Positions 7,906 through 50,985 of a DNA stretch of 53,799 bases are shown one piece after another (position 1 is the stretch's first letter; every line of letters begins with the position of its first letter). A program made the translations under genes and the position numbers. Under the pieces are notes generated by a model, which searched no databases, was not told where the DNA came from, and was given only the letters and a program-made list of their open reading frames with translations. Source of the stretch: a virus (taxonomy: Duplodnaviria; Caudoviricetes); IMG/VR virus record IMGVR_UViG_3300018049_000024, positions 1 to 53,799 of that record; one strand, given 5' to 3'.

Positions 7906-7909
7906 ATAA

Positions 7910-9958
7910 ATGAGTTATAGAATTAATAGAACTGATGGCGAGTTACTAATTGACTTGACGGACGGCGTCATAGATAAGTCTGTAACGGATCTTACACTAA
8001 TTGGTAAAAACTATAAAGGGTTTGGTGAATGGCTCAATGAAAACTTCATCAAACTACTAGAAAATTTTGCCTCTACATCACAGCCTCCCAATCCTCTGAC
8101 TGGACAGTTGTGGTATGACAAGCAGGATCAAAGGCTAAAGATTTTTAATGGAACTTATTTTCGTTCAGCAACAGGCACTATAGTCAATAGCAGCCAGCCT
8201 ACAAATTTAGTAGCTGGTGATATATGGATTGATAACGCAAATAATAGATTATACTTATACGATGGTGTAGATTTAACACTAGTAGGTCCTACTTATGATG
8301 TAGGACAAGGGCGTACAGGTTTTGAAGCTGATACACAATTAGATATCAATAATACAGCACATACCATTATGAAAATGTTTATAGGTGGTAAATTAGCTGG
8401 AATATTAGCAACAGAGGAATTTTGGATACCATATGATCACATTATTCCTACTTTAGATCCAGACCCAGAGGATACTTTCAAACCACCACGACAAAGACTC
8501 AAAAAAGGTTTCAATGTTGTAGATAAAGAAGCAGAATCTGGTGTAGATGGATTTTGGTGGCGGGGGACTTCGGATCAAACCAAGGCGTTACTTGATGATT
8601 ACGGTAATAGAAAAGAGTCTAAGCACTTTTTGCCAACAGATGGAGATGCTATTACAACAGGTTATATATCAATTAAGAACTCACAGGGTTTGATTATTGG
8701 TGTAGGTGATAGGCCTCATATTCAAACAAAAATATTTGGTAATACTACTTACATGGATAATTTAGAGGTTGATGCGAACTTTAGCTTGAGAGTAAAAAAT
8801 GCTCAATTTAAAAATAGTAACATTGAAGCATTTAGAGTTGATGCTTCAGAATATAAAGTGACGATGTTTGCTGATTTGCCTATTACATATCAGCCCTTAA
8901 CTAATTTGTATGATTTTAGTTTATTGAGTGCTCGCCCTAAATTAGAGTTTTGGGGAGATGCCTTTTTAGCAGGTAATCAACACTTTGCTGGAAATGTCAG
9001 CATACAGGGCGATTTAGATGTTGCAGGTACTACAGTTTATGTTAATACTGAGAATTTGTTTATACAAGATAAGAATATTGAGTTAGCTATTGATTCTGAT
9101 GGCAATATAGTAAATGATGCTTTTGTAGATGAAGGCGGGTTTATTCTAAAAAGTCTCGATGGCGATAAACAATTTTTATGGGATGTTACTTACAAAGCAT
9201 GGGAAGCTAATCAGCATATAAATCTTATAGCTGGGCCTAGTATTACCGATCCGTCTTTTATGATAGATGGTGTACCAATTTTATCAGCTACTGCTTTAGC
9301 AGCATCTGTAACAATAGCACCAGGTATGACAAAGCTAGGAACATTGACTGACTTGACAGTTGATAATGTTTTTATAAACGAAAACAAAATAGAAACTGTA
9401 GGGGTTGGTGTATATGGGCTTAAGATAGACCCAAAAGGTGATATTAGTGTAACATCACAGAAAATAGTTGATCTTGGGGATCCAGTCAATGACAAAGATG
9501 CTGCTCATAAACAGTATGTAGAAGAAACTATAGCAAGCCAAGGCGTTGTATTAGCATTTGACATCAATGGTTTGATGGTAGGTAACGATCCTCGAACAGC
9601 ACCATATAATGCTGGTACGATTGAGAATGTAAGAATAATAGCAGAGCAGATGAGATCAGCTACATTAGTATTACCAGGAACAGTGCTAAAGGTGTTGGCA
9701 ACATCTATCAAAGAGATTTCAGCTACAATTCCTGTAACAATTGGGTATGGCGATGATACTACAATACAGTTATCTAAAGTAACAGTTAGAAATTTTGATA
9801 ATACTGGGACAGTAAATGTTATTGAGGATATTGCAGCTAATAGTACAAGTGATGGCGTTAGTGCGGACATCAGTTTTGAAGTTGATCGGTTTGTTTATAA
9901 ATTTGAAAGCGATGGTTTTAACTGGATCAATCCTGAAGTAGAACAGTTAGTTATCTGA
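7910..9958 (+). CDS. Tail fibre/baseplate-associated structural protein, 682 aa
   Basis: Same N-terminal module (GKNYKGFGE..ENFIKLLENFA..GQLWYD); fibre motifs GDLDVAGTTVYVNT..DKNIEL and DPVNDKDAAHKQYV. Confidence 0.7.
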   Translation: MSYRINRTDGELLIDLTDGVIDKSVTDLTLIGKNYKGFGEWLNENFIKLLENFASTSQPPNPLTGQLWYDKQDQRLKIFNGTYFRSATGTIVNSSQPTNLVAGDIWIDNANNRLYLYDGVDLTLVGPTYDVGQGRTGFEADTQLDINNTAHTIMKMFIGGKLAGILATEEFWIPYDHIIPTLDPDPEDTFKPPRQRLKKGFNVVDKEAESGVDGFWWRGTSDQTKALLDDYGNRKESKHFLPTDGDAITTGYISIKNSQGLIIGVGDRPHIQTKIFGNTTYMDNLEVDANFSLRVKNAQFKNSNIEAFRVDASEYKVTMFADLPITYQPLTNLYDFSLLSARPKLEFWGDAFLAGNQHFAGNVSIQGDLDVAGTTVYVNTENLFIQDKNIELAIDSDGNIVNDAFVDEGGFILKSLDGDKQFLWDVTYKAWEANQHINLIAGPSITDPSFMIDGVPILSATALAASVTIAPGMTKLGTLTDLTVDNVFINENKIETVGVGVYGLKIDPKGDISVTSQKIVDLGDPVNDKDAAHKQYVEETIASQGVVLAFDINGLMVGNDPRTAPYNAGTIENVRIIAEQMRSATLVLPGTVLKVLATSIKEISATIPVTIGYGDDTTIQLSKVTVRNFDNTGTVNVIEDIAANSTSDGVSADISFEVDRFVYKFESDGFNWINPEVEQLVI

Positions 9959-9998
9959 TTTGGGGTAAATACAATATAATAGTTAGGGGTAACACAGA

Positions 9999-11543
9999 AT
10001 GGCGTATATTATTAATACATATAATACTGCTCAACTTACAGTAGTTGAAGATGGAACGATTGACCAAACTACTGATTTGAAGCTAGTAGGTAAAAATTAT
10101 GCAGGTTACGGTGAGATACAAAATGAGAACTTTGTATTCTTGCTTGAAAACTTTGCTGGAAATAATGAGCCACCTAAAGCCTTACAAGGACAGCTTTGGT
10201 TTGATGCAGCTAATCTAAAGTTGAAATTTTGGGATGGCAGTAAGTGGCGTTTAGCAGGAGGTTCTGAAGTATCTGAAGTTCCCCCAGCTGGTTTGTCAGA
10301 AGGTGATTTTTGGTGGGATGATAAAAATGATCAACTTTACTGCTGGAATGGTGATGAATACATTTTAGTAGGACCACAAGGAGTTGGTGACAGTATTACA
10401 AGATTCCAAAGCCGTTCCATCAGAGATACGGCAGGAGTTTCTCGCCCAGTTATTTGCTCTGTAGTAGATGATGAAGTAATTCATATTATTAGCGGAGTTG
10501 ATTTTACTATTGGGCCTGAAGACGCACCAAAATATCCAGGCTTTGATGTAATTCACTCAGGGCTTACATTAAAAAATACAGTCCACTCAGCAGCAGGACA
10601 AACATCTACGCATCATAGATGGTGGGGTACTGCTACGAACGCAGATAGATTAGGTGGTTATACACCAGATCAGTTTGTGCAAAAGACAGGGGCTACTTTT
10701 CCAAATATGGTAGGCTTTGGCGATGAAGGTGTTGCTATTGGCGATAGTAATGATTTACGATTGAAAATTATTAATGGCGATCAAGCACTTATTGCTAATG
10801 AGCAAGGTACAAATATGTACTTCCAAGTTAGAGATGTAAGTGGTAATTTAAGAATGCCATTTAGATTAATTGATAACGCAATTCTTCCAGGATACGATGT
10901 AATGTTTAGTCCAGGATCATTGAGCGCTTCGTTTGCTTCCGCAGTAGGAAGATCAGTAGATGTTGGAAGTATATCATATCCATTCCAAAATATGTTTGCT
11001 ACATCTTTTAAAGGAAATGCCGACACTGCATCTAAATTAGCGGTTGGCGCAACATATCATGAAGCATCAGCTACAGCACAAGCCAATTCAATCGCAGCAA
11101 GAAATGCGACAGGAGATTTGGTAGCAAATATTTTCCATGGTGTAGCAACCTCAGCTAGGTTTGCTGATTTAGCTGAAAAATATGAAGCTGATCAAGATTA
11201 TTCACCAGGTACTGTATTAGTATATGGTGGATCAAAAGAAGTAACAATGAGTACTCGAAAAAATGACAACAATGTTATTGGAGTTGTATCAACTAACCCG
11301 GCACATTTAATGAATGATGATATTGACGGTGTTGCTGTAGCATTACGCGGAAGAGTCCCTTGTAAAGTTATTGGACCAGTGAAAAAAGGTGATTTTATCA
11401 TTACATCTGATCGTCCAGGCGTTGGTAAAGCATTTAGCTTCCAAGATACTGGATCAGTCAAACCAGATTTTTATGCCATTATTGGTAGAAGTTTAGAGGA
11501 TAACAATTCAGAAGATATACGGTTAGTAGAAATAGTAGTATAA
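9999..11543 (+). CDS. Tail fibre protein with C-terminal peptidase G2/IMC-like chaperone domain, 514 aa
   Basis: Shared N-terminal module; C-terminal ADLAEKY..PGTVL..GVVSTNPA..VALRGRVPCKV..KGD resembles the peptidase G2 autoproteolytic domain. Confidence 0.7.
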   Translation: MAYIINTYNTAQLTVVEDGTIDQTTDLKLVGKNYAGYGEIQNENFVFLLENFAGNNEPPKALQGQLWFDAANLKLKFWDGSKWRLAGGSEVSEVPPAGLSEGDFWWDDKNDQLYCWNGDEYILVGPQGVGDSITRFQSRSIRDTAGVSRPVICSVVDDEVIHIISGVDFTIGPEDAPKYPGFDVIHSGLTLKNTVHSAAGQTSTHHRWWGTATNADRLGGYTPDQFVQKTGATFPNMVGFGDEGVAIGDSNDLRLKIINGDQALIANEQGTNMYFQVRDVSGNLRMPFRLIDNAILPGYDVMFSPGSLSASFASAVGRSVDVGSISYPFQNMFATSFKGNADTASKLAVGATYHEASATAQANSIAARNATGDLVANIFHGVATSARFADLAEKYEADQDYSPGTVLVYGGSKEVTMSTRKNDNNVIGVVSTNPAHLMNDDIDGVAVALRGRVPCKVIGPVKKGDFIITSDRPGVGKAFSFQDTGSVKPDFYAIIGRSLEDNNSEDIRLVEIVV

Positions 11544-11546
11544 ATA
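11539..11546 (+). promoter_or_regulatory. Putative late promoter TATAAATA
   Basis: Exact T4 late promoter consensus, followed by an AAGGA RBS and ATG at 11563. Confidence 0.55.
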
Positions 11547-11562
11547 AAGTAAAGGATTAAAA

Positions 11563-12540
11563 ATGCCAATTAACTATAAAGCTAGTGGTGCTACCATCTA
11601 TGCCGAAGACTATAACAGGCTTCAAACTAAAGTTGCTGCTATACTTGGACAAGGTGGAGGTATTCACGGAGCAGATTATGGTTACGGACAAACTATAAAA
11701 AGTTCGCAAGTGTCAGCAGTTAATGATTTAGTAACTGTAGAGCAAATGAACAATTTGCGACAAGATATAATGACTTGTTGGTTCCATCAGTCATCCGACG
11801 CATTCCCATTGTTATCAGTAGCTACAACAGATACCATTACTGCTGGAGCAGGAACTACATCAGCTATAATAGCAGAAGCAGTCAATAAAACTTATAATGA
11901 TTATACTTGGGTAGTAAATAAAATTGATATTGATCGATTATCAGCTACTCCTGGTGCTATGAATTTAGTGAATGATAAAGCATCAATGTCATTTAGTAAT
12001 TGGAACTCATACAGAGTGCATGAAGTAGTTGTAACTTTTGTAGACTCTAATCATAAAAGATATTTTTTCAATAGTGGCGGAGAAATTAGACTTCAGTCAC
12101 AACATATTGGATCTTTTTCATCAACGACTAAATCATATGTATGGCAGGAACTATTGTCATCGGCTGGAGTAACTAAGTTCGGTTATGATAATTATATTTC
12201 AGCAACATCAGCACCAAGTGTATTATTGCTAAAAAACCCAAATGCCTCGGCTGTATATGCTGAAAATTATTATAAGATATATTCTAGTTCGCCTTCAGCA
12301 AGCACACTATTATTTAAAATTGTGTTCAATGATGTTGATACTGGTGATAGGCCGGTTAATTCTCCTCCAGGACCATATGGCGCTTTAGTAGATGAGAATG
12401 TTACTGGAACAACTAAGAGCACACTATCAATATATTATCCGTCCATGACTTATGTCGATCCAAGAGCAACAGCAAATAGTTATACTGGTGTAACACTTAC
12501 AGTACCAAATACAACATCTAGACAAGGAACATCCATCTAA
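11563..12540 (+). CDS. Ser/Thr-rich virion structural protein, 325 aa
   Basis: Paralog of 12550 (YNxL..ILG.G..YGYGQ; xRxFFNxGGxIR); tail-module context. Confidence 0.6.
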   Translation: MPINYKASGATIYAEDYNRLQTKVAAILGQGGGIHGADYGYGQTIKSSQVSAVNDLVTVEQMNNLRQDIMTCWFHQSSDAFPLLSVATTDTITAGAGTTSAIIAEAVNKTYNDYTWVVNKIDIDRLSATPGAMNLVNDKASMSFSNWNSYRVHEVVVTFVDSNHKRYFFNSGGEIRLQSQHIGSFSSTTKSYVWQELLSSAGVTKFGYDNYISATSAPSVLLLKNPNASAVYAENYYKIYSSSPSASTLLFKIVFNDVDTGDRPVNSPPGPYGALVDENVTGTTKSTLSIYYPSMTYVDPRATANSYTGVTLTVPNTTSRQGTSI

Positions 12541-12549
12541 GAGATTATT

Positions 12550-13446
12550 ATGCCAATATCAAGTAGAAATACAAGCCAGACTTTGTCAGCAACACATTAC
12601 AATGAATTGAGGAATAAGATTGTAACAATTTTAGGAACTGGTTCAGGTAGCTATGGTTATGGACAAGGGACTACTAGCTCTACAGTTGCTGCAGGAGCAG
12701 GCGGTGGGCATGTATCAGCATCGCAAATGTCGCAACTAAGATCAGACATTTATAAATGTTGGTTACATCAAACAGGATCAACTTTTAGCTTACAAGTACC
12801 AACAGGAGGTACTGATGTATATAGAGCAGGAGGCTCAGGAGATTCGGATTACCAAAAGACACATAATGCTTATATAGCAGCAATTAATTCTTGTGAGACT
12901 AATAGGTTAAATGCCAACCCAACGCAAATGACGCTAGTTACTGGTTTAGCAGGTAAATCAATTGGAGCTAATTGGAACACTTCTAGGGTTATAACACATA
13001 CAGTAACTTTTTCAAACTCAAATCATAGGCGATGGTTTTTCAATGCAGGTGGATATATAAGATTTTCCATAGGAATGTCATATTCAGGATCTCAAACAAA
13101 GACACTTGATTGGGTGAATATATGTTCAAGATTTAATGGTTATACTTATGCCTATTCCCAATGGAATAATGGCTCAGGCACAGGAACACTTTCTACTTAT
13201 ACTGGCGGTAGTGCTAGCTCAGTATATAATGATAATTATGCAAATATGGCAGTGTCATTCCCAAATGCAAATAGCATAACCTTTACACAAAATTATGTTG
13301 ATGCTGATGTTGGAAGAAAATCTGGAAATCCATATTGGGTTGCAGCATATGATGAGCAAGTGTTAGGTACTATAAACTCATCAGTGTCTGTTTATTATCC
13401 AACAGGGTCCTCATCAGTTTCATTAGCTCGCCCTTCAGTAGGATAA
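12550..13446 (+). CDS. Ser/Thr/Gly-rich virion structural protein, 298 aa
   Basis: Paralog of 11563; very rich in S, T, G and N. Confidence 0.6.
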   Translation: MPISSRNTSQTLSATHYNELRNKIVTILGTGSGSYGYGQGTTSSTVAAGAGGGHVSASQMSQLRSDIYKCWLHQTGSTFSLQVPTGGTDVYRAGGSGDSDYQKTHNAYIAAINSCETNRLNANPTQMTLVTGLAGKSIGANWNTSRVITHTVTFSNSNHRRWFFNAGGYIRFSIGMSYSGSQTKTLDWVNICSRFNGYTYAYSQWNNGSGTGTLSTYTGGSASSVYNDNYANMAVSFPNANSITFTQNYVDADVGRKSGNPYWVAAYDEQVLGTINSSVSVYYPTGSSSVSLARPSVG

Positions 13447-13501: not shown

Positions 13502-13849
13502 ATGGACGAACGGCTAGAAAAAGCATTAGAGTTTTCCAATTTTATGGTTACTCTAAACAACCAAAAAAGAATTTTCCAAGAAACATACTATCAAGATATA
13601 CTCCATTATCATAAAGGCGCTCAGTTTTCTGTAAATCAACAGTTAATTTGTTTTGTCAAGATTATGCTAATGGAGGAGCAAGAGTCTGTAGTTTTAATTG
13701 ACGATAATGATCGGCCCGTTGAGATTGAAGATTTGCAAGCGTTCTATGATACAATTTTAAGTGTATATGTTGAAGCTAGTAATTCATATATGAGCAAATA
13801 TAATCATCTAATCAAAAATAGATCAATAGAAAAAATGGTAGAACTATGA
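13502..13849 (+). CDS. Conserved hypothetical protein, 115 aa
   Basis: Strong AAGGAG RBS; its stop overlaps the start of the first glycosyltransferase (ATGA). Confidence 0.7.
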   Translation: MDERLEKALEFSNFMVTLNNQKRIFQETYYQDILHYHKGAQFSVNQQLICFVKIMLMEEQESVVLIDDNDRPVEIEDLQAFYDTILSVYVEASNSYMSKYNHLIKNRSIEKMVEL

Positions 13850-14751
13850 AAAGTCGTGGGGCTCTTGTTGTAGCAAGAAATAACCCAAATATTGATTATT
13901 TAAAACAAGCAGCATTTCTAGCTCAAAGATTAGATCATTATTTAAATATTCCTACATCAGTTATTACTGATAGCCCAGAATGGGTAGTGGTAAATGGTTA
14001 TGCAGATATATTTGATAGAATTATACCAATCGTATGGGAAGATAAAGAATCATTACCAGGTAAAAATGTTATGGCTAGAACAAGCCCTCATTATACTTGG
14101 GAAAATGTTAGGCGATATTATGATGGTGTTTTGTCACATAAAGCATTGCCATTTAAAAATGAAGCTAGAACTTCGGCATATGACGCTACACCATATGATG
14201 AAACAATTCTAATAGACAGTGATATGTTTATTATGAATGATGATTATAAACATTGCTTTGAACAAGATCATAACTTTCTCATCTATGATAAAAGTTATGA
14301 CTTAGCAGGGTTTAGAAACCCAATGGAATTTAAATATATTAGTCAGCCTAGTATTAAGTTTTATTGGGCAACAGTTGTGTTTTTTAGAAAGTCTAAAGAA
14401 AATGAGATCTTCTTTGAGTTGTTAAAGCACATACAAGATAACTGGTATCATTATAGAGCTATTTTCCAAATACCAACAGCTTTATATCGTAATGATTTTG
14501 CATTTAGTATAGCAATTCATATTATGAACGGGTATGAAGAAGGAACATTTTCAATGCCAATGCCAGGCAAGTTATTTTTTACAGCAGATAAAGATATTCT
14601 ATGGGATGCTGACAGGGATCGTATAAATTTTTTATTGGAAAAAGAAGATTATCCAGGAGAATATACAATATGCCAATGGCGTAATGAAAATATTCATGTT
14701 ATGAATAAATTTAGTTTAGAACGATATATTGATAAGGTGTTGCATGTCTAA
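13846..14751 (+). CDS. GT-A fold glycosyltransferase-like protein (GT8-like), 301 aa
   Basis: TPYDETILIDSD (DxD motif), YWATVVFFRK, RNDFAFSIA; paralog of the next gene. Confidence 0.7.
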   Translation: MKSRGALVVARNNPNIDYLKQAAFLAQRLDHYLNIPTSVITDSPEWVVVNGYADIFDRIIPIVWEDKESLPGKNVMARTSPHYTWENVRRYYDGVLSHKALPFKNEARTSAYDATPYDETILIDSDMFIMNDDYKHCFEQDHNFLIYDKSYDLAGFRNPMEFKYISQPSIKFYWATVVFFRKSKENEIFFELLKHIQDNWYHYRAIFQIPTALYRNDFAFSIAIHIMNGYEEGTFSMPMPGKLFFTADKDILWDADRDRINFLLEKEDYPGEYTICQWRNENIHVMNKFSLERYIDKVLHV

Positions 14752-15610
14752 AGGTTTTGTAATATATGCCAGTGGAAAAGAATATGTAAAGCAGGCTTAT
14801 ATTTGTGCTATTAGTATAAAAGAAAAAGGAAACTCATATCCAGTAACAATTGTTACTTGTGATAAGATAGATGACGAGCAGAAAAAGGTATTTGATAGCG
14901 TAGTACCAATACCTTGGCACGAGCATGACAATACTCGATATCAAGTTTTGAATCGATGGAAGACTTACCACGCCTCACCTTATGATGAGACAATTGTATT
15001 AGATGCTGATACTGTAGTAACACAAAATATTGATGATTGGTGGAAGTTTTTTAGTAAGTATGAGTTATTTTTTCCATCTAGAGTTTATACATATCGAGGC
15101 GAGTTAGTTACAGGACATTATTATCGTAAAGCATTTGTAGAAAATAATTTGCCAAGTATATATACAGGAATACATTATTTTAGAAAAGATGATTTGGCGC
15201 ATGAATTTTTTAAATGGTTAGAACTTATATCTAATAATTGGGAATTGTTTTATGGGCAATACTGTAAAGATTATTATCCACCAGCACCAAGTATGGATGT
15301 ATCTACAGCAATTGCAATTAAAATTTTAGAGTTAGATCAAACAGTAACTAATAATAAAACTAATCTTATAAATTTTGTTCATATGAAAGAACGAATACAA
15401 GGTTGGGCAAATATTCGATCTACTTGGTTGAAGCACGTTGGGGTTTATTTAACAGAAGATTTAGATTTAGTGATCGGTAATCATTTTCAAAGAGGTGTTT
15501 TTCATTATGTTGATTCTGATTTTTTATCTAAAGAAATAGTTGATATATATGAAAGGAAATATTTTCCTAACAAAGTTTATGAAGAAATAGTACAAGGTAT
15601 TGTATCATGA
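14744..15610 (+). CDS. GT-A fold glycosyltransferase-like protein (GT8-like), 288 aa
   Basis: SPYDETIVLDAD (DxD motif), FVHMK; start moved to ATG 14744 (AAGGTG upstream). Confidence 0.7.
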   Translation: MSKGFVIYASGKEYVKQAYICAISIKEKGNSYPVTIVTCDKIDDEQKKVFDSVVPIPWHEHDNTRYQVLNRWKTYHASPYDETIVLDADTVVTQNIDDWWKFFSKYELFFPSRVYTYRGELVTGHYYRKAFVENNLPSIYTGIHYFRKDDLAHEFFKWLELISNNWELFYGQYCKDYYPPAPSMDVSTAIAIKILELDQTVTNNKTNLINFVHMKERIQGWANIRSTWLKHVGVYLTEDLDLVIGNHFQRGVFHYVDSDFLSKEIVDIYERKYFPNKVYEEIVQGIVS

Positions 15611-16209
15611 GTTATGTTTGTTTTAATGTTCGAGAAGGAAATATATTAGCAATAACAAATAATAAACCAGATGATTTAGATTTTGACTGTGAATGGAAAT
15701 CTATAATAGTTGATGTTGCTGAGGTTGAAGATATTCTATTAGGAAATGAAGACTACGCAAATTTTATAGTAATATATGATCGAACGTATCTTGGTTATAA
15801 ATTAAAGCGTAAAGAAATTATACCAGTTGATGAATTAAATATACAAGAAATTGTTTATAAAATTCCACAAGTTCATAAGGACTTAGATGCTGATATTAAG
15901 ATAATACAAGATATTGATACAACTTGTTGGAAAGTTTATGTTGGTAAAGATGCCGCTGGAAAACTTAGAGCAGAGTTTGCTAGTTTAAAGTTAGTTTTAC
16001 ATTTTTCAGTAACTCAATATAACAATCCTAATATATTATATCGTATATTAAAAGTAGATTTAGAGAAATTAGTAAATGAGCATCATTGTGTCCTTCATTT
16101 TGAAGAAGACTGGGAATATGATCCATATTTTCCAGTGAGTATTTTTACAGTAAGACGATTTGACAATTACACATATCAAAGAGTAGTGGATTATGGAGAA
16201 AGTATTTAA
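15607..16209 (+). CDS. Hypothetical glycosyltransferase-associated protein, 200 aa
   Basis: Coupled to GT genes on both sides; its N-terminus resembles that of the 19888 radical SAM protein. Confidence 0.65.
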   Translation: MSYVCFNVREGNILAITNNKPDDLDFDCEWKSIIVDVAEVEDILLGNEDYANFIVIYDRTYLGYKLKRKEIIPVDELNIQEIVYKIPQVHKDLDADIKIIQDIDTTCWKVYVGKDAAGKLRAEFASLKLVLHFSVTQYNNPNILYRILKVDLEKLVNEHHCVLHFEEDWEYDPYFPVSIFTVRRFDNYTYQRVVDYGESI

Positions 16210-17122
16210 GGTATTGGATTACGATATAATTTATTTAAGTTATGATGAACCAAATGCTGAACAGAATTATGCTGATTTATGTAAGAAAATACCATGGGCA
16301 AAAAGAGTTCATGGCGTAGAAGGCTCGGATGCGGCACACAAAGCCTGCGCAAATTTATCTGAGACTGATAGATTTGTTACTATAGACGGCGATAATAGAA
16401 TTAGAGAAGATTTTCTTACGCAAGAGATTAATTTTGGCGATCATTATGAGCTAGAAGATAAAGTTATTAGTTGGTGTGGGTATAATGTTATCAACGGACT
16501 TATGTATGGTAACGGCGGAGTAAAATGTTGGCCCAAAGATTTTGTGCTAAATATGCGAACACACGAAAACGCAGATCCAAATAATCCACACGCTCAAGTA
16601 GATTTTTGCTGGGATGTAGAATACATTCAAATGAATTCTTGTTTCTCTGATATTTACAATAACGCAACACCACAGCAAGCATGGCGAGCAGGATTTAGAG
16701 AAGGCGTAAAGATGGCACTAGATCAAGGAGTAAAGCCATCTTTGGAAGACTTCAAAAATAACCACTGGAAAAACCTCCACAGGCTGTTTATTTGGCTTAT
16801 GGTGGGTAACGATGTTGAGAATGGAATGTGGGCGATCTTGGGCGCTAGACAGGGCCTATACAAGACGATGTGCACCGACTGGGATTATGTTCAAGTAAGA
16901 GACTTTACTTACCTAAATAAATTATGGAATGAAGAAGTTAGTAAGCTAACCGAAACAGATGCTGAAGGAGAGATTATTTGGTTTGGCAGATTATTAGAAG
17001 AAGAATTAGATTTACCAATTGATAGAAAACCCTTAACAGAAAAGCAAAGTATATTTTTCAAAACAGTATATCAAAACCCATCTAGGATTTCAAGAGCAGT
17101 AATTGATCCGGAGATAGGATGA
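16193..17122 (+). CDS. Glycosyltransferase-like protein (GT-A/GT2-like), 309 aa
   Basis: SYDEPNA, RVHGVEG, TIDGD (DxD motif), YGNGGVK, WRAGFRE; homologous to the C-terminal domain of 25248. Confidence 0.65.
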   Translation: MEKVFKVLDYDIIYLSYDEPNAEQNYADLCKKIPWAKRVHGVEGSDAAHKACANLSETDRFVTIDGDNRIREDFLTQEINFGDHYELEDKVISWCGYNVINGLMYGNGGVKCWPKDFVLNMRTHENADPNNPHAQVDFCWDVEYIQMNSCFSDIYNNATPQQAWRAGFREGVKMALDQGVKPSLEDFKNNHWKNLHRLFIWLMVGNDVENGMWAILGARQGLYKTMCTDWDYVQVRDFTYLNKLWNEEVSKLTETDAEGEIIWFGRLLEEELDLPIDRKPLTEKQSIFFKTVYQNPSRISRAVIDPEIG

Positions 17123-18543
17123 GAGAAAATCAGCGAGGAGATCAAGTCTCGCTAGTTGAAGGACGATATGTTTCAAAATATTTTAAAGATAGTAAAGAGA
17201 CACTAACGGATCTCAATGCCGTTAGTCCGTCATTCTGCCTAGCAAAATGGTTCAATGTATCAATTCATATCCCAACAGGGCAGACTCACAGTTGTTATCA
17301 TCCCCAGTCTCACGCTATACCATTAGACGAGTTAGCGGCTAATCCAGATGCTATACACAACACTAGCCATAAAATACAGCAGCGGCATAAGATGTTGGAA
17401 GGAGAGCGTCCAAAAGAGTGTAGTTACTGCTGGGATATTGAAGATCAAGGCAATATAAGTGACAGAGCTTACCGCAGCAATGATGTTCAAGAGGAAGGAC
17501 TAATACAAAAAGCATTAGACAACATTCAGCACCCAACTCCACGCTATATGGAGGTAAATTTTAATCAGGCTTGTAACTTTAAGTGTGCATATTGCTCACC
17601 GCATTTATCTACTGAATGGCTAAAGGAGGTACAAGAGTATGGCGGTTACAAATTATCATCAGGAACGCATAATGATAAAGGTTGGGTAGATAGATTAGGG
17701 ATTGACAATAGCCCAGACAATCCATACGTTCAATCGTTTTGGGAATGGTGGCCCACTGTATATAAGGATCTAAAAACATTTAGAATGACAGGCGGTGAGC
17801 CACTAATGGATAAGAATACTTTCAGAGTATTTGATTATGTAAAACAAAATCCAAATCCAGAACTTAATTTGTGTATTACAAGTAATTGTTGCCCACCAGG
17901 CAATCAATGGAATAAGTTTATGGTTGCTATAAAAGAGATAGCAAATGAAGAAACGCTCAATCACTTTCAACTATATTGTAGCTTAGATACTTGGGGAGAG
18001 CAAGCAGAATATATCCGTAACGGTTTAGATTATGAGATATTAAGAAAAAATATTGTACAATTTTTAACAGAGTGCAAAAATCATAGCTTAGGATTTATAA
18101 TTACATCAAATTTGCTCAGTCTTCCTAATTGGTGTAAGTTTATAGAGACTATTCATGAGCTACGATGTAAAGTAAATAAAGAGAGACAACTAATATGGTT
18201 TGATACTCCAATGCTACATCATCCTAATTGGCTAAGTATGAGATTAGCAACTCCAGAGATGTTGAATAATTTACAACTTAGTATAGATTTTATGGAAAAT
18301 AATAAAGAGACTTCCAATAATAGATTTAAAGGTTTTAAGGATTTTGAGATTGATAGAGTAAGACGATTATATGATTGGGCTAAACATCCTTTTAGTGCTG
18401 AAGAAGATGAGAAACATAAGATAGACTTTTATTTATTTTTTACTGAACATGATAAAAGGCGCAATACAAATTTTACAAAAACATTTCCAACTATGATAAA
18501 ATTTATGAACCAGTGTAAGGAGTATTATGAGCAAAGGAGATGA
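17119..18543 (+). CDS. Radical SAM protein with N-terminal twitch-like Cys domain, 474 aa
   Basis: CNFKCAYC, TGGEP; N-terminal FCLAKW..HSCYHP..CSYCW. Confidence 0.9.
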   Translation: MRENQRGDQVSLVEGRYVSKYFKDSKETLTDLNAVSPSFCLAKWFNVSIHIPTGQTHSCYHPQSHAIPLDELAANPDAIHNTSHKIQQRHKMLEGERPKECSYCWDIEDQGNISDRAYRSNDVQEEGLIQKALDNIQHPTPRYMEVNFNQACNFKCAYCSPHLSTEWLKEVQEYGGYKLSSGTHNDKGWVDRLGIDNSPDNPYVQSFWEWWPTVYKDLKTFRMTGGEPLMDKNTFRVFDYVKQNPNPELNLCITSNCCPPGNQWNKFMVAIKEIANEETLNHFQLYCSLDTWGEQAEYIRNGLDYEILRKNIVQFLTECKNHSLGFIITSNLLSLPNWCKFIETIHELRCKVNKERQLIWFDTPMLHHPNWLSMRLATPEMLNNLQLSIDFMENNKETSNNRFKGFKDFEIDRVRRLYDWAKHPFSAEEDEKHKIDFYLFFTEHDKRRNTNFTKTFPTMIKFMNQCKEYYEQRR

Positions 18544-19891
18544 TCACGTTCGAGAAGCAAGAGATGTTGCAAAGAGACTGAATGCAGTAGGTCCAGGGTT
18601 TTGTGCTATGAAGTGGCTACATCAAACTTTATATTTACATACAGGTGATAATCATAGTTGTTATCATCCACGTCCCCATCATATTCCTTTACATACTCTA
18701 AAAGATAACCCGTCTGCTTTGCATAATACTAACTGGAAAAAAGAACAACGAAAAACAATGTTAGAGGGTGGACGCCCTGCTGAGTGTTATTATTGTTGGA
18801 ATATTGAAGATTTAGAAGGAGATCATTTATCAGATAGAATGTTCCATAGCTCTAGCTCGTTTGCTGAGCCAATGATTGAAAAATTAGCAGAGCTTCCTTG
18901 GGATGCTAATATAAATCCAAGATATTTAGAAGTATCGTTTGGCAATGGTTGTAATTATAGATGTGGTTACTGCTGTCCACAAGCAAGCACAATGTGGATG
19001 GAAGAAATTGAGACATACGGCAATTATGATTTGACATATAATCAATATGGAACAGAGTTTTTGCGAAGCGGAAACTACTATGGACCAAATGAAGATAATC
19101 CATATATTGAGGCGTTTTGGAAATGGTGGCCCAGTTTGAAAAATGATTTATGGACACTTCGTATTACTGGCGGGGAGCCACTAATGAATCCTGGAGCTAT
19201 GAAGTTTTTTGATTTATTAGAAAATGAACCATCGCCTAACTTAGAGATTAGCTTAAATAGTAATTTAGGTGTTACTACAAAAAAGATTGATAGGTTGTTT
19301 GATCGGATACGAAGTTTATTAGATCAAAATAAAATTAAGAAATTTAGACTCTTTACAAGTATTGATACATGGGGACCACAAGCTGAGTATATGCGTACTG
19401 GAATGAAGTTAGATCATTGGGAGCGCAATCTTAGAAAAGCAATGGAGATGGAATTTGAAGTAAGTCTTATGTGTACATTTAATGTTTTATGTGTTACAAA
19501 CTATAAATCGTTTTTATATAAAATGAAAGAATGGAGAGCTGATTATGGCAAAGAGGCTATTTCATTTGATGTTCCATATCTTAAAGAACCACCTCATTGG
19601 ATGATTAATATTTTGCCCGAAAGTTTTATGGAATATATGCATGATACTTTAGAGTTTATTAATAGTGACTCTGATTTTTTACCAGCAGAGTATGAGAGAT
19701 TTAAACGAGTCACAAATTATATGAAAACTAATCCAGTTGAGCATAGTAAAATTTTACAAGGACAAAGAGATTTTTATTCATTTTTTACAGAAAATGATAA
19801 ACGATTAGGAACTGATTTGTTAGCTACATTTCCTGAGTATAAAGATTTTTATTATCATTGTAAAGATGTTTATGAGAACTACGAAAAATGA
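18527..19891 (+). CDS. Radical SAM protein with N-terminal twitch-like Cys domain, 454 aa
   Basis: CNYRCGYC, TGGEP; FCAMKW..HSCYHP..CYYCW; close paralog of 17119. Confidence 0.9.
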   Translation: MSKGDDHVREARDVAKRLNAVGPGFCAMKWLHQTLYLHTGDNHSCYHPRPHHIPLHTLKDNPSALHNTNWKKEQRKTMLEGGRPAECYYCWNIEDLEGDHLSDRMFHSSSSFAEPMIEKLAELPWDANINPRYLEVSFGNGCNYRCGYCCPQASTMWMEEIETYGNYDLTYNQYGTEFLRSGNYYGPNEDNPYIEAFWKWWPSLKNDLWTLRITGGEPLMNPGAMKFFDLLENEPSPNLEISLNSNLGVTTKKIDRLFDRIRSLLDQNKIKKFRLFTSIDTWGPQAEYMRTGMKLDHWERNLRKAMEMEFEVSLMCTFNVLCVTNYKSFLYKMKEWRADYGKEAISFDVPYLKEPPHWMINILPESFMEYMHDTLEFINSDSDFLPAEYERFKRVTNYMKTNPVEHSKILQGQRDFYSFFTENDKRLGTDLLATFPEYKDFYYHCKDVYENYEK

Positions 19892-21450
19892 GTTATGTAT
19901 ATTATAATAATGACGGCTCAATAATAGCAGCATCAAATGATTTGTTAACAGATTTTGCAAATGCCAACATTTTAGAAATTGAGTTTGAAAAAATAGAAAA
20001 ATTGTTAGTTGGAGAGCATTTACCATCAGAGTATAATGTTTATAAAAATAAACTAGTCTATAAAAAAGAGAAAGTAGAATCAACATGGAAGTTAAAGGCT
20101 ATTACATTTTTTTATAAATATTTGAGAAGAGTTGAATCATATTATAATACCTATCATGACATACTTAAATATAAAGTAGCATTAATGACAACGACACCAT
20201 ATAGTCCCCCATCTAAATCTCTTTATCATCGTCCCCCATCTAAACCTATTCATCCAACAAGATGTGTTAATCCATATCTAAATTTAACAATACATCCAAG
20301 TGGTAAAGTTAAAGTATGTTGTATGAGTCATAAGTGGCTCACTACTGATTCTGGAGAGACTACTTTAAATAATGCTAGTTTGTTAGATTTTTGGAATTCA
20401 AAAGACAGAAAACGATTTATAAAACAATTAGAGAGTAAAATACAAGTTCCTGAATGTAAGGCTTGTTGGACTGAAGAAGCAGCAGGAAAAGATAGTAAAA
20501 GATTGCGAGATAATGCAGCATACAAACACATACCACACGATGAACAGTCTTTTCCAATAGTATTAGATTTAGGTATGGGAAACTTATGTAATTTAAAATG
20601 TCGTATTTGTTCAGCAGTTCATAGTACACCTATGTTAGCTGAAGAAGCTGAAATGTTGCAGCCAAACGATGTTGTTGGTTATATGAATCAAGATAAGTTC
20701 CGTATTACTCGTGAAAGTTTTGATCCTAATAATTCGTATGTTTGGGAAGATATAAAACCATTTCTAAAAAATGCTATGAGGTTTGATTTCTCAGGCGGAG
20801 AGCCTTTTTATATTGATTCGCATTGGCGTATAATAGATCATTGTGTAGAGAATGATTATGCGAAAGAACAAATAGTTCATTACAATACAAATGGATCAAT
20901 ATTTCCACAAAAGCATATTCACAAGTTAGATAAATTCAAATTAGTTGATATACAAATAAGTTCAGATGGTATAGGTAAACAATTTGAATATTTGAGAAGT
21001 GGTGTATCATTTGAATTGTCAGAACAAAATATAGATAAGTTTTTAGAAAGAAAAAAAGAAAGTAAAACTAATTGGTTATTAGGTGCTTGTCTAAGTGTAA
21101 GTGCTTTCAATGTTTTTGATTTTTTTGAAACTTATGAGCATTATACAGCAAAAGGTTTAGGGGTATATGTTAATTTTGTTCATGATAATGGTGGAATACG
21201 AGTGCTACCAACAGAAGTTAAAAATCATTTGATAGATAAACTTCAAAGGACTGAAAGTAAGTATAACAAAGCAGATTGGCGTAAAGTAAAAAACTCAATA
21301 TCAAGTATATTGAATAATACTGAGTTCGTAGAAGAAGATTGGCTTTGGTTTTGTAATAGATTTCAAAGTTTAGATAAAGTGAGAGAGGAAAGTTTTGAAC
21401 AAACTTTTCCAGAATACTATAAGTTATTAAAGGAATATATAAATGTTTAA
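19888..21450 (+). CDS. Twitch-domain radical SAM protein with extra N-terminal domain, 520 aa
   Basis: CVNPY..VCC..CKACW, CNLKCRIC, SGGEP, YNTNG. Confidence 0.9.
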   Translation: MSYVYYNNDGSIIAASNDLLTDFANANILEIEFEKIEKLLVGEHLPSEYNVYKNKLVYKKEKVESTWKLKAITFFYKYLRRVESYYNTYHDILKYKVALMTTTPYSPPSKSLYHRPPSKPIHPTRCVNPYLNLTIHPSGKVKVCCMSHKWLTTDSGETTLNNASLLDFWNSKDRKRFIKQLESKIQVPECKACWTEEAAGKDSKRLRDNAAYKHIPHDEQSFPIVLDLGMGNLCNLKCRICSAVHSTPMLAEEAEMLQPNDVVGYMNQDKFRITRESFDPNNSYVWEDIKPFLKNAMRFDFSGGEPFYIDSHWRIIDHCVENDYAKEQIVHYNTNGSIFPQKHIHKLDKFKLVDIQISSDGIGKQFEYLRSGVSFELSEQNIDKFLERKKESKTNWLLGACLSVSAFNVFDFFETYEHYTAKGLGVYVNFVHDNGGIRVLPTEVKNHLIDKLQRTESKYNKADWRKVKNSISSILNNTEFVEEDWLWFCNRFQSLDKVREESFEQTFPEYYKLLKEYINV

Positions 21451-25247: not shown

Positions 25248-26897
25248 ATGTATGATATATTTTATATAGGCCCAAAGAACGATTCTTACCAAAAGCTAAA
25301 AAATAAAATTCTAACATTACGACAAGCTGATACTTTTGAGAGTGCTAATAAAAAATGCATTACTAAATTCTTTTGGTGTGTTTGGGATGATATTATAATA
25401 GAGGATGATTTTACATTTGATTATGCACCAGATGAGTGGAGTCAAGATGTACCTCATGTTTTTAAGAATGGTGCGTTATATGATGGTGTATGGTTAGTTC
25501 CAAAGAAAAATACTATAAGAACTAAAGAGATTGAGTATAGATTTTTAGTAAGTAAAAAAGAAATCCCAATTGTTGCAAGCACTCCTCGACCTTATGAGAT
25601 TTTTATTATCGATACTATGGAGCAGTATGAGCAAGCATTGGCAAGCTCTAAGACAGAAATGTTTTTTGGTGTTTCATCTATGGTTGATATAATTGATATG
25701 CCTGACGTTTATTTTAGAGTAAGCAAAGCTGAAGAATATAATAGGAAAGAAAATCATGCTTGGTTAAACGATGTATGTGGTGAACTAAAATATGATGGAT
25801 TATACTTATTTTCCAAACATAAACCTGTATCAAAAAAAGAGATAGAATATAGACATCTTGTTTATAAAAAAGAATACGAAACTATAGCAACAAGAGCAAG
25901 TAAATATCCAATATATACAATTGATACATATGATGACTATGAACATGCTCTAAATACTTGTAAAACTGAAATGTTTTTTGGAACAAGTAAGGGCATTGAT
26001 ATATTAGATTTTGATTTTGATATTTTTTATACATATAGGGGCAATGAGTTTGAATATGAAAGAAAAGAAAATCACGCCTTCAAAAATATATGTAACGGGG
26101 AAGAAAAATATAATGGTATATTCTTGTTATCAAAACATAAACAGTTGTCAAAAAGAGAGCTACAATTTAGACATATTGTATATAAAAAGGAATGGAACAT
26201 TGTAGCTAGTAAGCATAAGCCATATGATGTAGTGTTTATGAGTTATGATGAAGAATATGCTGATGAGAATTATGAGAATTTATTAAAGAAAGCACCTCAC
26301 GCTACCCGTGTTCATGGAGTAAAAGGAATTCACCAAGCTCATATAGCAGCAGCAAAACAGTGTTCATCAGAAATGATTTGGATTGTAGATGCTGATGCTA
26401 TAATAATGGATGATTTTAATTTTGAGTTGTTTGTAGAAAAATGGGATAGAGAAACTGTTCATGTTTGGCGCTCTAAAAATCCTATAAATGATTTAGTGTA
26501 TGGTTATGGCGGGGTAAAACTTTTTCCAAGAGAGCTTACAATCAATATGGACACTAGTAAGCCAGATATGACAACTAGCATTACACACAAGTTTAAGGCA
26601 ATGCCAGCAATATCAAATATTACAGCATTCAATACAGATCCGTTCAATACTTGGAAGTCTGCGTTTAGAGAATGTTGCAAGCTAAGTTCAAAAATTATTG
26701 ATAGGCAAAGGGCTAAGGAAACAGAAGAAAGATTACATATATGGTGTACTGTAGGGGATGATAAAGAGTTTGGAGAATATGCTATATCTGGAGCTAAAGC
26801 AGGAGCAGCATATGGCTCTAGAAATAAAGAAAATTTAGAAGCACTAAAGAAAATAAACGATTTTGATTGGTTAAAGAATTATTATAATGAAATCTAA
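25248..26897 (+). CDS. Glycosyltransferase-like protein with three N-terminal repeats, 549 aa
   Basis: C-terminal domain SYDE..RVHGVKG..WIVDAD..YGYGGVKLF..WKSAFRE; three repeats of about 105-115 aa precede it. Confidence 0.7.
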   Translation: MYDIFYIGPKNDSYQKLKNKILTLRQADTFESANKKCITKFFWCVWDDIIIEDDFTFDYAPDEWSQDVPHVFKNGALYDGVWLVPKKNTIRTKEIEYRFLVSKKEIPIVASTPRPYEIFIIDTMEQYEQALASSKTEMFFGVSSMVDIIDMPDVYFRVSKAEEYNRKENHAWLNDVCGELKYDGLYLFSKHKPVSKKEIEYRHLVYKKEYETIATRASKYPIYTIDTYDDYEHALNTCKTEMFFGTSKGIDILDFDFDIFYTYRGNEFEYERKENHAFKNICNGEEKYNGIFLLSKHKQLSKRELQFRHIVYKKEWNIVASKHKPYDVVFMSYDEEYADENYENLLKKAPHATRVHGVKGIHQAHIAAAKQCSSEMIWIVDADAIIMDDFNFELFVEKWDRETVHVWRSKNPINDLVYGYGGVKLFPRELTINMDTSKPDMTTSITHKFKAMPAISNITAFNTDPFNTWKSAFRECCKLSSKIIDRQRAKETEERLHIWCTVGDDKEFGEYAISGAKAGAAYGSRNKENLEALKKINDFDWLKNYYNEI

Positions 26898-27429
26898 ATA
26901 TATTTTTATAACAGGCGCTCCAGGAAGCAAGTGGAGTAGCTACAGCCAAAAAATAAGGCAATGGGATACAATAGATAACTCAGATTGTAATCAGCTTCGA
27001 TCTTATACCCACAATCAATTCTCAGGACATAAAGGGGTGTACTTTGGCCCTGAGATGGAATACGGCGATTGGCTCAAAGATGGGTTTTATCCTAACAAAC
27101 TAGAAGAAGATGTAAAGTCAATATGGACAGGAGATGGGCAAAAAATATTGATGAGCCATAATTGGTGTTATTACTTTGATGAAATTTTATATGCTTATCC
27201 CACAGCAACAATCATAACAGTGCAGAGAAAAAATGATAAGTGTTTTGAATGGTGGAAACAGGCAGGTGGTTGGGGAATTACATACCCTAGCTATAGTTGG
27301 TATAAAAATGATGATAGGATGAAAGAAGAAATTAGTAAGCAAAATAAATGTATTGAAGATTATATTGAGAAACATAAATTAGAGAGAACATATTTTGAAG
27401 ATATAACATCAACTATAAATATAAAATGA
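26887..27429 (+). CDS. P-loop / sulfotransferase-like protein, 180 aa
   Basis: N-terminal IFITGAPGSKWS and IITVQR strand; family call is tentative. Confidence 0.45.
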   Translation: MKSKYIFITGAPGSKWSSYSQKIRQWDTIDNSDCNQLRSYTHNQFSGHKGVYFGPEMEYGDWLKDGFYPNKLEEDVKSIWTGDGQKILMSHNWCYYFDEILYAYPTATIITVQRKNDKCFEWWKQAGGWGITYPSYSWYKNDDRMKEEISKQNKCIEDYIEKHKLERTYFEDITSTINIK

Positions 27430-42487: not shown

Positions 42488-43589
42488 AGATTTAAAATGG
42501 AGTCAATACGACTTTACTAAAATTCCTTTTGATGATATAGTCTCATTAGGACAGCGAACATTATTATATAGAGATTTATTTACAGTGTCGTGGTTGCTAG
42601 GACGATATTGTAACTACAAGTGTTCCTATTGTTGGCCCTATGCCCATACTACAAAAAAGGATCATCGTCCTACAGAGCTATGCCTAAAAACAATTGATGA
42701 AATTAAAAGACAAGCAAGGATTAATGGATTTAATTCATTTCATTTTTCTCTGTCAGGCGGTGAGCCTACATTTCACCCTGGCTACTTAGATATCCTAAAA
42801 TATCTAGCAGATGATGTGCCTAACACAAACTACACATCAATTCATATGACTAGTAACTGCTCCCGCCCCTTAGACTGGTTTAGAACGTATGTAGAGTTCG
42901 CTAAGCCGTTTCATAGAGCATCTATAACTGCTAGCCTACATACAGAACATGTCGCTACTACGGGCGATCTAAGCGACTTTGCGGACAAGCTAGAATTCTG
43001 CCAATCATATGATGTGCAAGTAACAGTCAATATGGTGATGGTGCCTGAATGGTTTGACAAGGACTGGGAGAACGCCCTCTATTTACACAACAGAGGGATC
43101 AACGTTACGCTAAAGCCACAGTCCGACCCCACAGCATCCCGTGTGGTAGATGGCTATACAGAGGAACAATTACACACCTTACACAACGGAATGCCGCAAA
43201 GGGCTTATACAGAGACAAAGCGAGAATGGAAAGATAGGCCTAAAGCAACTTTTGAAGTTCCACAAGGACAAAAAGATGATTCATCGGTACCAGGACATTT
43301 TCAAGTAGAGTTTACAGACTCAACTGGTAAAAAATGGTATATGGATCAGGCAGAAAGATTTAATGCGTTTAATTTTAATAATTTTGAAGGATGGATATGT
43401 AACTCAGGGTATCAAGGAATTATTATTAGAGAACCAGATGGTAATATAAAACGAAGTTATTCTTGTCATGATGAACCGTTGGGGAATATAGAAACAGGAT
43501 TCAAATTGTTTAACAAACCAACGATTTGTACAACTAAATCCTGTGTTTCTAGTGCAGACTCTAAATTGCCAAAATATAAATTAATGTAA
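42480..43589 (+). CDS. Radical SAM protein with C-terminal Cys cluster, 369 aa
   Basis: CNYKCSYC, SGGEPT; C-terminal CNSG..YSC..CTTKSC; paralog of 35367. Confidence 0.9.
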   Translation: MNKDLKWSQYDFTKIPFDDIVSLGQRTLLYRDLFTVSWLLGRYCNYKCSYCWPYAHTTKKDHRPTELCLKTIDEIKRQARINGFNSFHFSLSGGEPTFHPGYLDILKYLADDVPNTNYTSIHMTSNCSRPLDWFRTYVEFAKPFHRASITASLHTEHVATTGDLSDFADKLEFCQSYDVQVTVNMVMVPEWFDKDWENALYLHNRGINVTLKPQSDPTASRVVDGYTEEQLHTLHNGMPQRAYTETKREWKDRPKATFEVPQGQKDDSSVPGHFQVEFTDSTGKKWYMDQAERFNAFNFNNFEGWICNSGYQGIIIREPDGNIKRSYSCHDEPLGNIETGFKLFNKPTICTTKSCVSSADSKLPKYKLM

Positions 43590-46588: not shown

Positions 46589-46879
46589 TTAGTATTTCAA
46601 ATGAGGACACGCTAAAGTGAAGTATGACAACTCTTTAGGTTCCTCAAACCCAATGTATAAAACTTCTGAGATTCCTCTATCAACTGGATCAATTTTTAGC
46701 GTTCGTCCAATATAATATCGTCCTTTCAGATTATCGTGGATCCATTTGTCCATGGATCGCTCTAAATTATAGTGTAACGGAATCGTCATATATTCGAAAT
46801 GAGCAGGCGCCGAGGACGCCTTTCTCACTCCGTAAAAGTTTAGCCGATTCGCTTTTTTTATTTTAAGCGGATTCGTCAT
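46589..46879 (-). CDS. Hypothetical protein, about 96 aa
   Basis: Start moved to ATG 46879, overlapping the end of the vWA gene. Confidence 0.6.
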   Translation of the reverse strand: MTNPLKIKKANRLNFYGVRKASSAPAHFEYMTIPLHYNLERSMDKWIHDNLKGRYYIGRTLKIDPVDRGISEVLYIGFEEPKELSYFTLACPHLKY

Positions 46880-50952: not shown

Positions 50953-50985
50953 AATAAATAGGCGCTATCATAGCGCCCATTTATT
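50953..50985 (-). terminator. Intrinsic terminator after the AAA ATPase
   Basis: Minus strand AATAAATGGGCGCTA-TGA-TAGCGCCTATTTATT: GC-rich stem followed by a U-rich tail, directly after the stop codon. Confidence 0.7.

Follow-up and report, generated by a model that had tools for sequence, protein, structure and literature searches.

What is the role of the many radical S-adenosylmethionine (SAM) and glycosyltransferase (GT) genes that lie among the tail-fibre genes of marine T4-like phages? One locus raises this question in a concrete form, namely whether a single protein physically joins the two groups of enzymes. The locus lies in IMG/VR virus record IMGVR_UViG_3300018049_000024, a 53.8 kb sequence from an uncultured marine phage, estimated to be about 15% complete, the first 13 kb of which are taken up by tail-fibre-like genes (we refer to the whole of this stretch as the window). 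A sequence-only reading of the window had noticed that the N-terminus of a 520-aa radical SAM protein resembles that of a stand-alone 200-aa protein encoded upstream of it, and had proposed that a shared domain of roughly 60 aa fuses a GT module to a radical SAM enzyme. We confirmed both of the N-termini that it quoted in the window sequence, and we find that the similarity is real. The 520-aa protein is a true three-part fusion composed of a 62-residue module, a variable proline-rich spacer, and a complete twitch-type radical SAM enzyme. We give a probability of about 0.5 to the reading in which the module is a protein-binding handle of the 200-aa protein, tethering one radical SAM paralog to the same partner or substrate complex. 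Coordinates of all of these features are collected in Table 1, below.

Taken alone, the pairwise similarity of the two proteins is weak and only suggestive. BLASTP aligned them with 22 identities over 73 positions (expectation value [E] 0.45); a Smith-Waterman comparison of the first 60 residues scored 49, where shuffled sequences averaged 24.1 (z 5.2, with 1 of 2000 shuffles reaching the score), and a comparison with the whole 200-aa protein gave z 3.4 (its score being reached by 19 of 2000 shuffles). At the DNA level the two genes are identical over their first 11 bases only. The profile comparisons, whose signal strengthens as the 200-aa family is sampled more deeply, decide the matter. Against a target made of the two known radical SAM N-termini, the hhalign probability climbed from 51.7% with five family sequences (E 1.5e-4) to 77.2% with nine (E 2e-5) and 93.6% with 129 (E 2.1e-7), so that the profile-profile alignment proposed as a check came out in favor of the resemblance. 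A hidden Markov model (HMM) of the N-terminal domain (N-domain; 77 positions), built from 129 stand-alone family members with the radical SAM sequences excluded, was searched against the 358 open reading frames (ORFs) of at least 30 aa in the window. Its best match was the 200-aa protein (E 7.9e-19), followed by the 520-aa protein over residues 2-52 (E 6.4e-8, 27.2 bits), with the third-best match at E 0.11. Among 2168 stop-to-stop frames of related loci, the same model found six 200-aa orthologs and the N-terminus of the radical SAM ortholog on contig L005 (E 2.7e-9; next match 0.71). The reverse search (phmmer, using the 66-residue N-terminus of the 520-aa protein as query against 2715 sequences) returned, among the matches listed, the query itself, two orthologs, and then family members only, the best of these being P0134 (5.6e-6) and an ORF of L060 (6e-6). 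The two near-invariant family glycines (G11 and G46 in the 200-aa protein) are both present in the 520-aa protein, as G10 and G42. We regard the N-domain homology between the 520-aa protein and the 200-aa family as established.

A similarity arising by chance, or from shared composition in an AT-rich genome, would be compatible with the non-significant BLASTP pair, but we judge it extremely improbable. The gap between the HMM match of the 520-aa protein and the next-best score was obtained among ORFs of the same composition; nothing outside the family was matched at E ≤1e-3 in the 2168 frames plus 2228 ORFs of related AT-rich phage DNA; the hhalign probability is high; and the HMM matches begin at residue 1-2 in both proteins.

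The extent of the fused domain is indicated by the L005 ortholog, which is 76% identical to the window protein over the first 66 residues and diverges completely after residue 62; alignability is lost there, placing the end of the domain at about residue 62, in good agreement with the size first estimated. The interval originally marked (19888-20250, the first 121 codons) thus holds the N-domain and also takes in the spacer. Within the spacer, residues 63-100 are without a family match. Prolines abound in residues 101-123 (TTTPYSPPSKSLYHRPPSKPIHP), where PPSK is briefly repeated, and the codon at 20185-20187 is an internal ATG (M100). No Pfam (E ≤0.01), PHROG or NCBIfam model matched residues 1-122. 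The remainder of the protein is covered almost end to end by the NCBIfam model NF033640 (N_Twi_rSAM), which aligns to residues 123-513 over model positions 2-397 of 398 (264.9 bits, cutoff 170). Pfam places SPASM at residues 126-194 (E 2.2e-7) and Radical_SAM at 231-395 (E 2.3e-5), the CX3CX2C motif is present as CNLKCRIC at 234-241, and the cysteines of the N-terminal SPASM/twitch region are at positions 126, 144, 145, 190 and 193. Residues 123-513 thus form a twitch-type radical SAM enzyme that is complete without the extension; the protein matches the whole of the known family model and differs from it in carrying a 122-residue extension that lies outside the model. The motif N-[DN]-P-N-[IV]-L-Y, characteristic of the C-terminal domain (C-domain) of the 200-aa protein, is not in the 520-aa sequence on direct reading (the C-domain HMM was not run on it), and the profile alignments of the family to the 520-aa protein stop at residues 51-52. 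The 520-aa protein thus has one domain in common with the 200-aa family without being a full-length member of it. Since this domain ends at what in the 200-aa protein is its own low-confidence interdomain linker, exactly one module was captured by the fusion.

The fused form is not confined to the window. It is also present on contig L002 (99% identical to the window's ORF), and the 90%-identity cluster of the 520-aa protein is recorded on 15 contigs. A sister lineage, represented by L005 and L013, has the same N-domain and a different spacer, a long Pro-Glu/Pro-Lys repeat. The L005 spacer reads PLEPEPEPEP and runs into the contig end; the L013 contig starts within a Pro-Glu/Pro-Lys run 57 or more residues long, whose reading frame carries on into a radical SAM body that shares 81% identity with the window's. 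The run is encoded by a 12-base tandem repeat (L013 1-165, about 14 copies), and both assemblies break within it; because L005 and L013 are separate contigs, we infer their continuity as one lineage. A proline-rich spacer similar to the L013 run is found in TonB. Given that L002, the 15-contig cluster, L005 and L013 all show it, the fusion is real and no artefact of assembly.

Beyond these relatives the extension is absent. The syntenic ortholog on L003 is a 400-aa protein that is 52% identical from residue 124 and is without the extension. In 80 further IMG/VR loci there are 27 related ORFs of 356-403 aa; all of them are likewise without it, their matches starting at residues 123-126 of the window protein. 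Our survey of these 80 loci extended 6 kb from the 200-aa gene in either direction (864,572 bases and 2228 ORFs of at least 50 aa). In it, the N-domain is carried by 81 ORFs, of which 79 also have the C-domain; the N-domain-only ORFs are the radical SAM genes of the L005 and L002 contigs alone. A single family copy was found in each of five related records searched whole, one of them the 344-kb RsoM2USA genome. A word-index search with residues 1-120 returned the protein's own cluster only among proteins of 286-910 aa, and nothing among those of 30-285 aa. The proposal to build a domain HMM and list its fusion partners therefore yielded a working model and, within the 80 loci and their 2228 ORFs, radical SAM as the sole partner. 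A search of the literature for this cassette or fusion found nothing specific. The fusion is thus restricted to the window's close relatives and one sister lineage with a different spacer.

The comparison between the window and L005 indicates that the fused N-domain is under purifying selection. Its 62 codons differ by 12 amino-acid changes, with 13.7 differences counted as synonymous and 15.3 as non-synonymous, and the ratio of non-synonymous to synonymous substitution rates (dN/dS) is 0.19. In the same pair the ratio is 0.12 for the 200-aa gene and 0.085 for the gene of the 454-aa radical SAM protein; the spacer is unalignable between the two. A value of 0.19 argues against a decaying remnant, within the limits of a small sample. 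These data bear directly on the possibility that the extension is a neutral recombination scar, in which the 5' end and start codon of a 200-aa-family gene were joined in frame to an enzyme gene and the resulting extension is functionless. The start ATG of the 520-aa ORF overlaps the stop of the upstream 454-aa radical SAM gene (ATGA), and the 200-aa gene begins with the same ATGA overlap; this shared overlap, together with the 11 bases with which both genes begin, is what recombination at a gene boundary would be expected to leave; the narrow lineage in which the fusion occurs, the lack of any match for residues 63-100, and the fact that the radical SAM family works without the extension in all 27 relatives are likewise consistent with such an origin. 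We nonetheless consider a scar unlikely, if well short of negligible, because the low dN/dS of the domain was found while the adjacent spacer has been wholly replaced, the frame is open in two lineages with unrelated spacers, both family glycines are kept, and the break falls exactly at the domain boundary.

As for its source, the fused domain has Smith-Waterman scores of 86 against P0134 and 83 against P0087, and of 52 against the resident 200-aa protein, which ranks 65th of the 129 family members. The fused domain is nearer to other members than to the resident protein, which points to an old duplicate or to a copy from another phage. A recent intragenomic duplication is ruled out by that rank and by the 11-base limit of the DNA identity.

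What the module may do depends on the family from which it comes. An exhaustive profile search of 1.84 billion representative proteins returned 823 proteins at E ≤0.001, 411 of them at ≤1e-10. Among the best 150 of the 823, 126 are 181-223 aa long, 22 are 278-637 aa long, and two are 112-127 aa long. All 22 long forms have an N-terminal N-domain match and a C-domain HMM match further on, and about 19 of them have 100-440 unmatched residues between the two domains; the other three are P0057 (two C-domain matches), P0151 (a C-domain split by an insert), and P0083 (a C-terminal extension). No Pfam family was found above its curated cutoff in the 22 long forms (P0057-P0151). The N-domain is modular, being joined to the C-domain by a linker in the 200-aa protein, set apart from it by unmatched residues in most long forms, and captured in the radical SAM protein.

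An AlphaFold2 (AF2) model of the 200-aa protein, computed from a nine-sequence alignment (mean predicted local distance difference test [pLDDT] 82.5, predicted template modelling score 0.55), has two domains separated by a linker of low confidence (pLDDT 51 for residues 71-80). The N-domain is modelled as strands 2-7, 13-17 and 30-35, helix 37-44, and strands 53-58 and 63-68. The C-domain is a predicted beta-sandwich with the motif S-[IV]-T-x-x-N-[DN]-P-N-[IV]-L-Y and the near-invariant residues T136, P141, S178, T181 and Y188; VIA-align gives weak fibronectin type III (FN3)/immunoglobulin (Ig)-like matches for residues 93-200, with Z up to 5.4. Over the N-domain just one solved structure was matched, the tail-fibre chaperone of phage Mu (PDB 5yvq chain B, aligned to model residues 1-69 with Z 3.8 and a root mean square deviation of 2.5 A over 54 residues). 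The genes discussed here also follow tail-fibre-like genes, but the Z of 3.8 is within noise (the tool's own note puts the chance level at Z under 8) and no PDB chain is matched by sequence; we treat the likeness as a lead only.

The 200-aa protein has no family in Pfam (E ≤0.01), PHROGs or NCBIfam, and no enzyme signature. In PDB, neither Foldseek with the model (E ≤0.001) nor a sequence search with the family profile (E up to 10) gave any match, a BFVD search returned three uncharacterised family members and nothing else, and a search of the ESM Atlas returned nothing above 0.79. On these models and searches, the protein looks like a non-enzymatic, two-domain member of an uncharacterised family. 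Since it is not a glycosyltransferase, the fusion joins the 200-aa protein, and not a GT, to a radical SAM enzyme; of the link that had been drawn between the GT module and radical SAM enzymes, the shared modular domain on a radical SAM protein survives and the GT end does not.

The absence of an enzyme signature (in Pfam, PHROGs or NCBIfam) would also be expected if the 200-aa protein were itself a substrate or carrier of the GTs and radical SAM enzymes, with near-invariant T136, S178, T181 and Y188 on its C-domain as potential acceptor sites; the fused N-domain would then be substrate-like (a self-substrate or decoy) and not an adaptor. We find this account quite improbable, given that the conserved Ser, Thr and Tyr residues sit in the C-domain, not in the part that was copied to the enzyme, and that the N-domain has no conserved polar residues, its conservation consisting of two glycines and a hydrophobic pattern only.

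The genes around the 200-aa gene form a cassette (in order, the 115-aa gene, two GT genes, the 200-aa gene, the 309-aa gene, and a radical SAM gene) that follows a fibre-like gene and in which the two GTs are paralogous. The order is the same in L003 and in L005-L009, and the neighboring genes of L005 are 82-96% identical to those of the window. Across the 80 surveyed loci, both GTs lie upstream of the 200-aa gene in 77, the 115-aa gene lies upstream in 75, and a gene for a fibre-like relative of the 325-aa or 298-aa protein of the window lies upstream in 64; the 309-aa gene lies downstream in 78, and a twitch-type radical SAM gene is found within four ORFs downstream in 73. Both GTs, the 309-aa gene and the radical SAM gene occur together in 70 of the 80 loci, and all three elements flank the 200-aa gene for 41 of 50 distinct sequences (identical 200-aa sequences removed); several of the incomplete loci appear in gene maps to be contig ends. 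Two variations in this arrangement were observed, at L019, L021, L022, L037, L042-L047 and other loci. An extra ORF of about 258-261 aa stands between GT293 and the 200-aa gene in 10 of the 80 loci, and another stands between the 200-aa and 309-aa genes in nine of the 80, seven of these being about 254-269 aa long; none of the extra ORFs at these 10 and nine loci matched any window protein.

The cassette is also found in the Ralstonia jumbo phage RsoM2USA (MG752970.1), which at L010 9328-14311 has the same six genes in the same order (ORFs 354-349): a homolog of the 115-aa protein (ORF354), two GTs (ORF353 and ORF352), a 184-aa family member (ORF351, full-family HMM E 7.3e-20), a homolog of the 309-aa protein (ORF350, 45% identical), and a 473-aa twitch radical SAM protein (ORF349). 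This phage differs in that its radical SAM protein is without the N-domain and in that ORF351 matches the N-domain HMM weakly (E 0.015). A tblastn search of 50,697 phage records with the 200-aa protein gave no match, and the RsoM2USA homolog was reached through the neighboring gene. All six ORFs are annotated as hypothetical, and the text of the RsoM2USA paper (PMC8504454) does not contain 'radical', 'glycosyltransferase', 'ORF350' or 'ORF351'. The fusion had been offered as the most direct evidence that GTs and radical SAM enzymes act in one pathway, a position that gene order, conserved in 70 of 80 loci and in RsoM2USA, now takes over: of the two links between GTs and radical SAM enzymes, this conserved synteny is the stronger.

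We return to the docking reading, in which the 200-aa protein, a core and putatively non-enzymatic member of the cassette adjoining the tail-fibre-like genes, would use its N-domain as a handle for docking or oligomerisation. An extended spacer would connect a copy of this handle to one accessory radical SAM paralog, and the enzyme so equipped would be tethered to the same partner or substrate complex as the 200-aa protein. The spacer tether and the apparent purifying selection fit a docking or recruitment module. By analogy, the pattern resembles that of substrate-recruiting domains that occur free or fused to radical SAM enzymes. For example, the PqqD-like recognition elements of ribosomally synthesized and post-translationally modified peptides (RiPPs) are found either free or fused N-terminally to radical SAM/SPASM maturases, and have a winged-helix fold. 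In both cases a small domain that is usually separate sometimes stands at a radical SAM N-terminus, where it would recruit the enzyme. The cases differ in that neither protein has a PqqD match in Pfam (E ≤0.01), in that the predicted order of the N-domain in the 200-aa model (three strands, helix, two strands) departs from the winged-helix pattern, and in that the free form here is a two-domain protein in a GT cassette, with no precursor peptide evident.

In a special case of docking, the fused enzyme would join oligomers of the resident 200-aa protein by contacts between N-domains. Small strand-rich N-terminal domains with flexible linkers often oligomerise, and the same domain is present in two proteins of one phage; on the other side, the resident protein's place at 65th of 129 in similarity to the fused copy (52, against a best of 86) means that pairing by near-identity is not indicated. 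We regard this version as rather unlikely. Prediction of a complex between the 200-aa protein (129 alignment rows) and the radical SAM N-domain (100 rows) gave ipSAE 0.00 in both runs, which, made without controls, speak neither for nor against such pairing.

Several observations weigh against the docking reading. No binding partner is known for the N-domain, and the restriction of its conservation to two glycines and a hydrophobic pattern leaves no evident conserved interaction surface. The fold of the fused copy was not confirmed by AF2 (residues 1-121, predicted from a two-sequence alignment, gave mostly helices at pLDDT 49 and an unusable model). Translation from M100 could yield an enzyme without the N-domain. 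The dN/dS estimate comes from 62 codons of one sequence pair. Finally, the fusion is rare (two of the 80 contigs surveyed) and no second partner was found, indicating that the domain is not a widely used adaptor, although N-domain-only proteins elsewhere may have been missed, as the family was read from the best 150 of 823. The adaptor idea remains a plausible hypothesis.

Table 1. Positions of the fusion, the 200-aa protein and the cassette genes in the window
Feature	Position	Strand	Basis or remark
520-aa radical SAM protein	19888-21450	+	ORF list
Fused N-domain, residues 1-62 of 520-aa protein	19888-20073	+	N-domain HMM, hhalign, reciprocal phmmer
Variable spacer, residues 63-123 of 520-aa protein	20074-20256	+	Direct sequence reading
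Twitch-type radical SAM body, residues 123-513 plus tail	20254-21450	+	NF033640, Pfam
Stand-alone 200-aa protein	15607-16209	+	Between GT293 and 309-aa protein
N-domain, residues 1-68 of 200-aa protein	15607-15810	+	AF2, N-domain HMM
Interdomain linker (residues 69-83) and C-domain (about 84-193) of 200-aa protein	15811-16209	+	AF2, structure alignment
Conserved cassette around 200-aa gene	13502-19891	+	ORFs, synteny
115-aa protein	13502-13849	+	Cassette member
GT301	13846-14751	+	Cassette member
GT293	14729-15610	+	Pfam Mannosyl_trans3 26.5 bits, cutoff 22
309-aa protein	16193-17122	+	Cassette member
474-aa twitch radical SAM protein	17119-18543	+	N_Twi_rSAM
454-aa twitch radical SAM protein	18527-19891	+	N_Twi_rSAM

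The 520-aa protein is one of many radical SAM proteins in the window. Between positions 17119 and 43589, 12 ORFs match Pfam Radical_SAM at E ≤0.0011, some of them below the gathering score (ORF starts at 17119, 18527, 19888, 21443, 22665, 28131, 29188, 31557, 32645, 34031, 35364 and 42480). The N_Twi_rSAM cutoff was passed by four of the five window radical SAM ORFs tested against NCBIfam, the 474-aa and 454-aa proteins scoring 309 and 310 bits. Upstream of the cassette, five consecutive fibre-like ORFs occupy 5773-13446; the first three share N-terminal matches to phrog_15511/phrog_14394, and the last two (325 and 298 aa) have an N-terminal YGYGQ motif in common with the first three, by eye. 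A relative of the 309-aa protein is encoded at 25248-26897. This 549-aa protein shows the homology in its C-terminal part, along with a GT2 match that falls short of the threshold (21.3 bits, cutoff 23.3), and its N-terminal part has, by eye, three repeats of about 100 residues (IEYRFLVSKKE, IEYRHLVYKKE and LQFRHIVYKKE). This GT-like gene is followed, at 26887-27429, by a 180-aa ORF with a sub-threshold Sulfotransfer_4 match (E 2e-4, 21.7 bits, cutoff 22.8). A 566-aa protein encoded on the minus strand (43581-45281) contains Mtd_N, the N-terminal domain of Major tropism determinant (E 9.3e-10). Beyond the plus-strand block, and also on the minus strand, are genes for a DUF2201 metallopeptidase-like/VWA-like protein (46863-48164) and a MoxR-type AAA ATPase (50985-52064).

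Gene content of this kind has been described before. The host recognition cluster of marine T4-like myophages contains a large variable island among the tail-fibre genes, where glycosyltransferases of the GT8 type are found together with cassettes of radical SAM genes (Zaragoza-Solas et al. 2020, PMC7029224), and the window is the same in having GTs and radical SAM genes among its fibre genes; it differs in the 200-aa family, the fixed cassette and the fusion, none of which is mentioned in the sections of that paper available to us. For that cluster, the same sections propose that the host O-chain is what is modified, and not phage proteins (PMC7029224). Nishimura et al. report a T4-like environmental genome with 12 radical SAM genes (PMC5332604), as many as there are Radical_SAM ORFs in the window.

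Our analysis gives the unnamed 200-aa family a place as a fixed member of a cassette of GTs, the 309-aa protein and twitch radical SAM proteins, a cassette that spans ocean phages and a soil jumbo phage, and it points to the capture of the family's N-domain by one radical SAM paralog. One speculative scheme, to which we attach a low probability, is that the cassette may build and tailor a glycan-type modification on the phage's own receptor-binding fibres, with the 200-aa protein presenting the substrate, its N-domain docking the enzymes, and the fused enzyme, on its extended Pro-Glu/Pro-Lys or proline-rich spacer, representing an accessory tailoring enzyme in the course of recruitment by domain capture. 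The fusion is rare and does not itself reveal the chemistry. The 62-residue handle is nevertheless a reagent with which a partner might be fished out, which would in turn reveal the cassette's substrate or scaffold.

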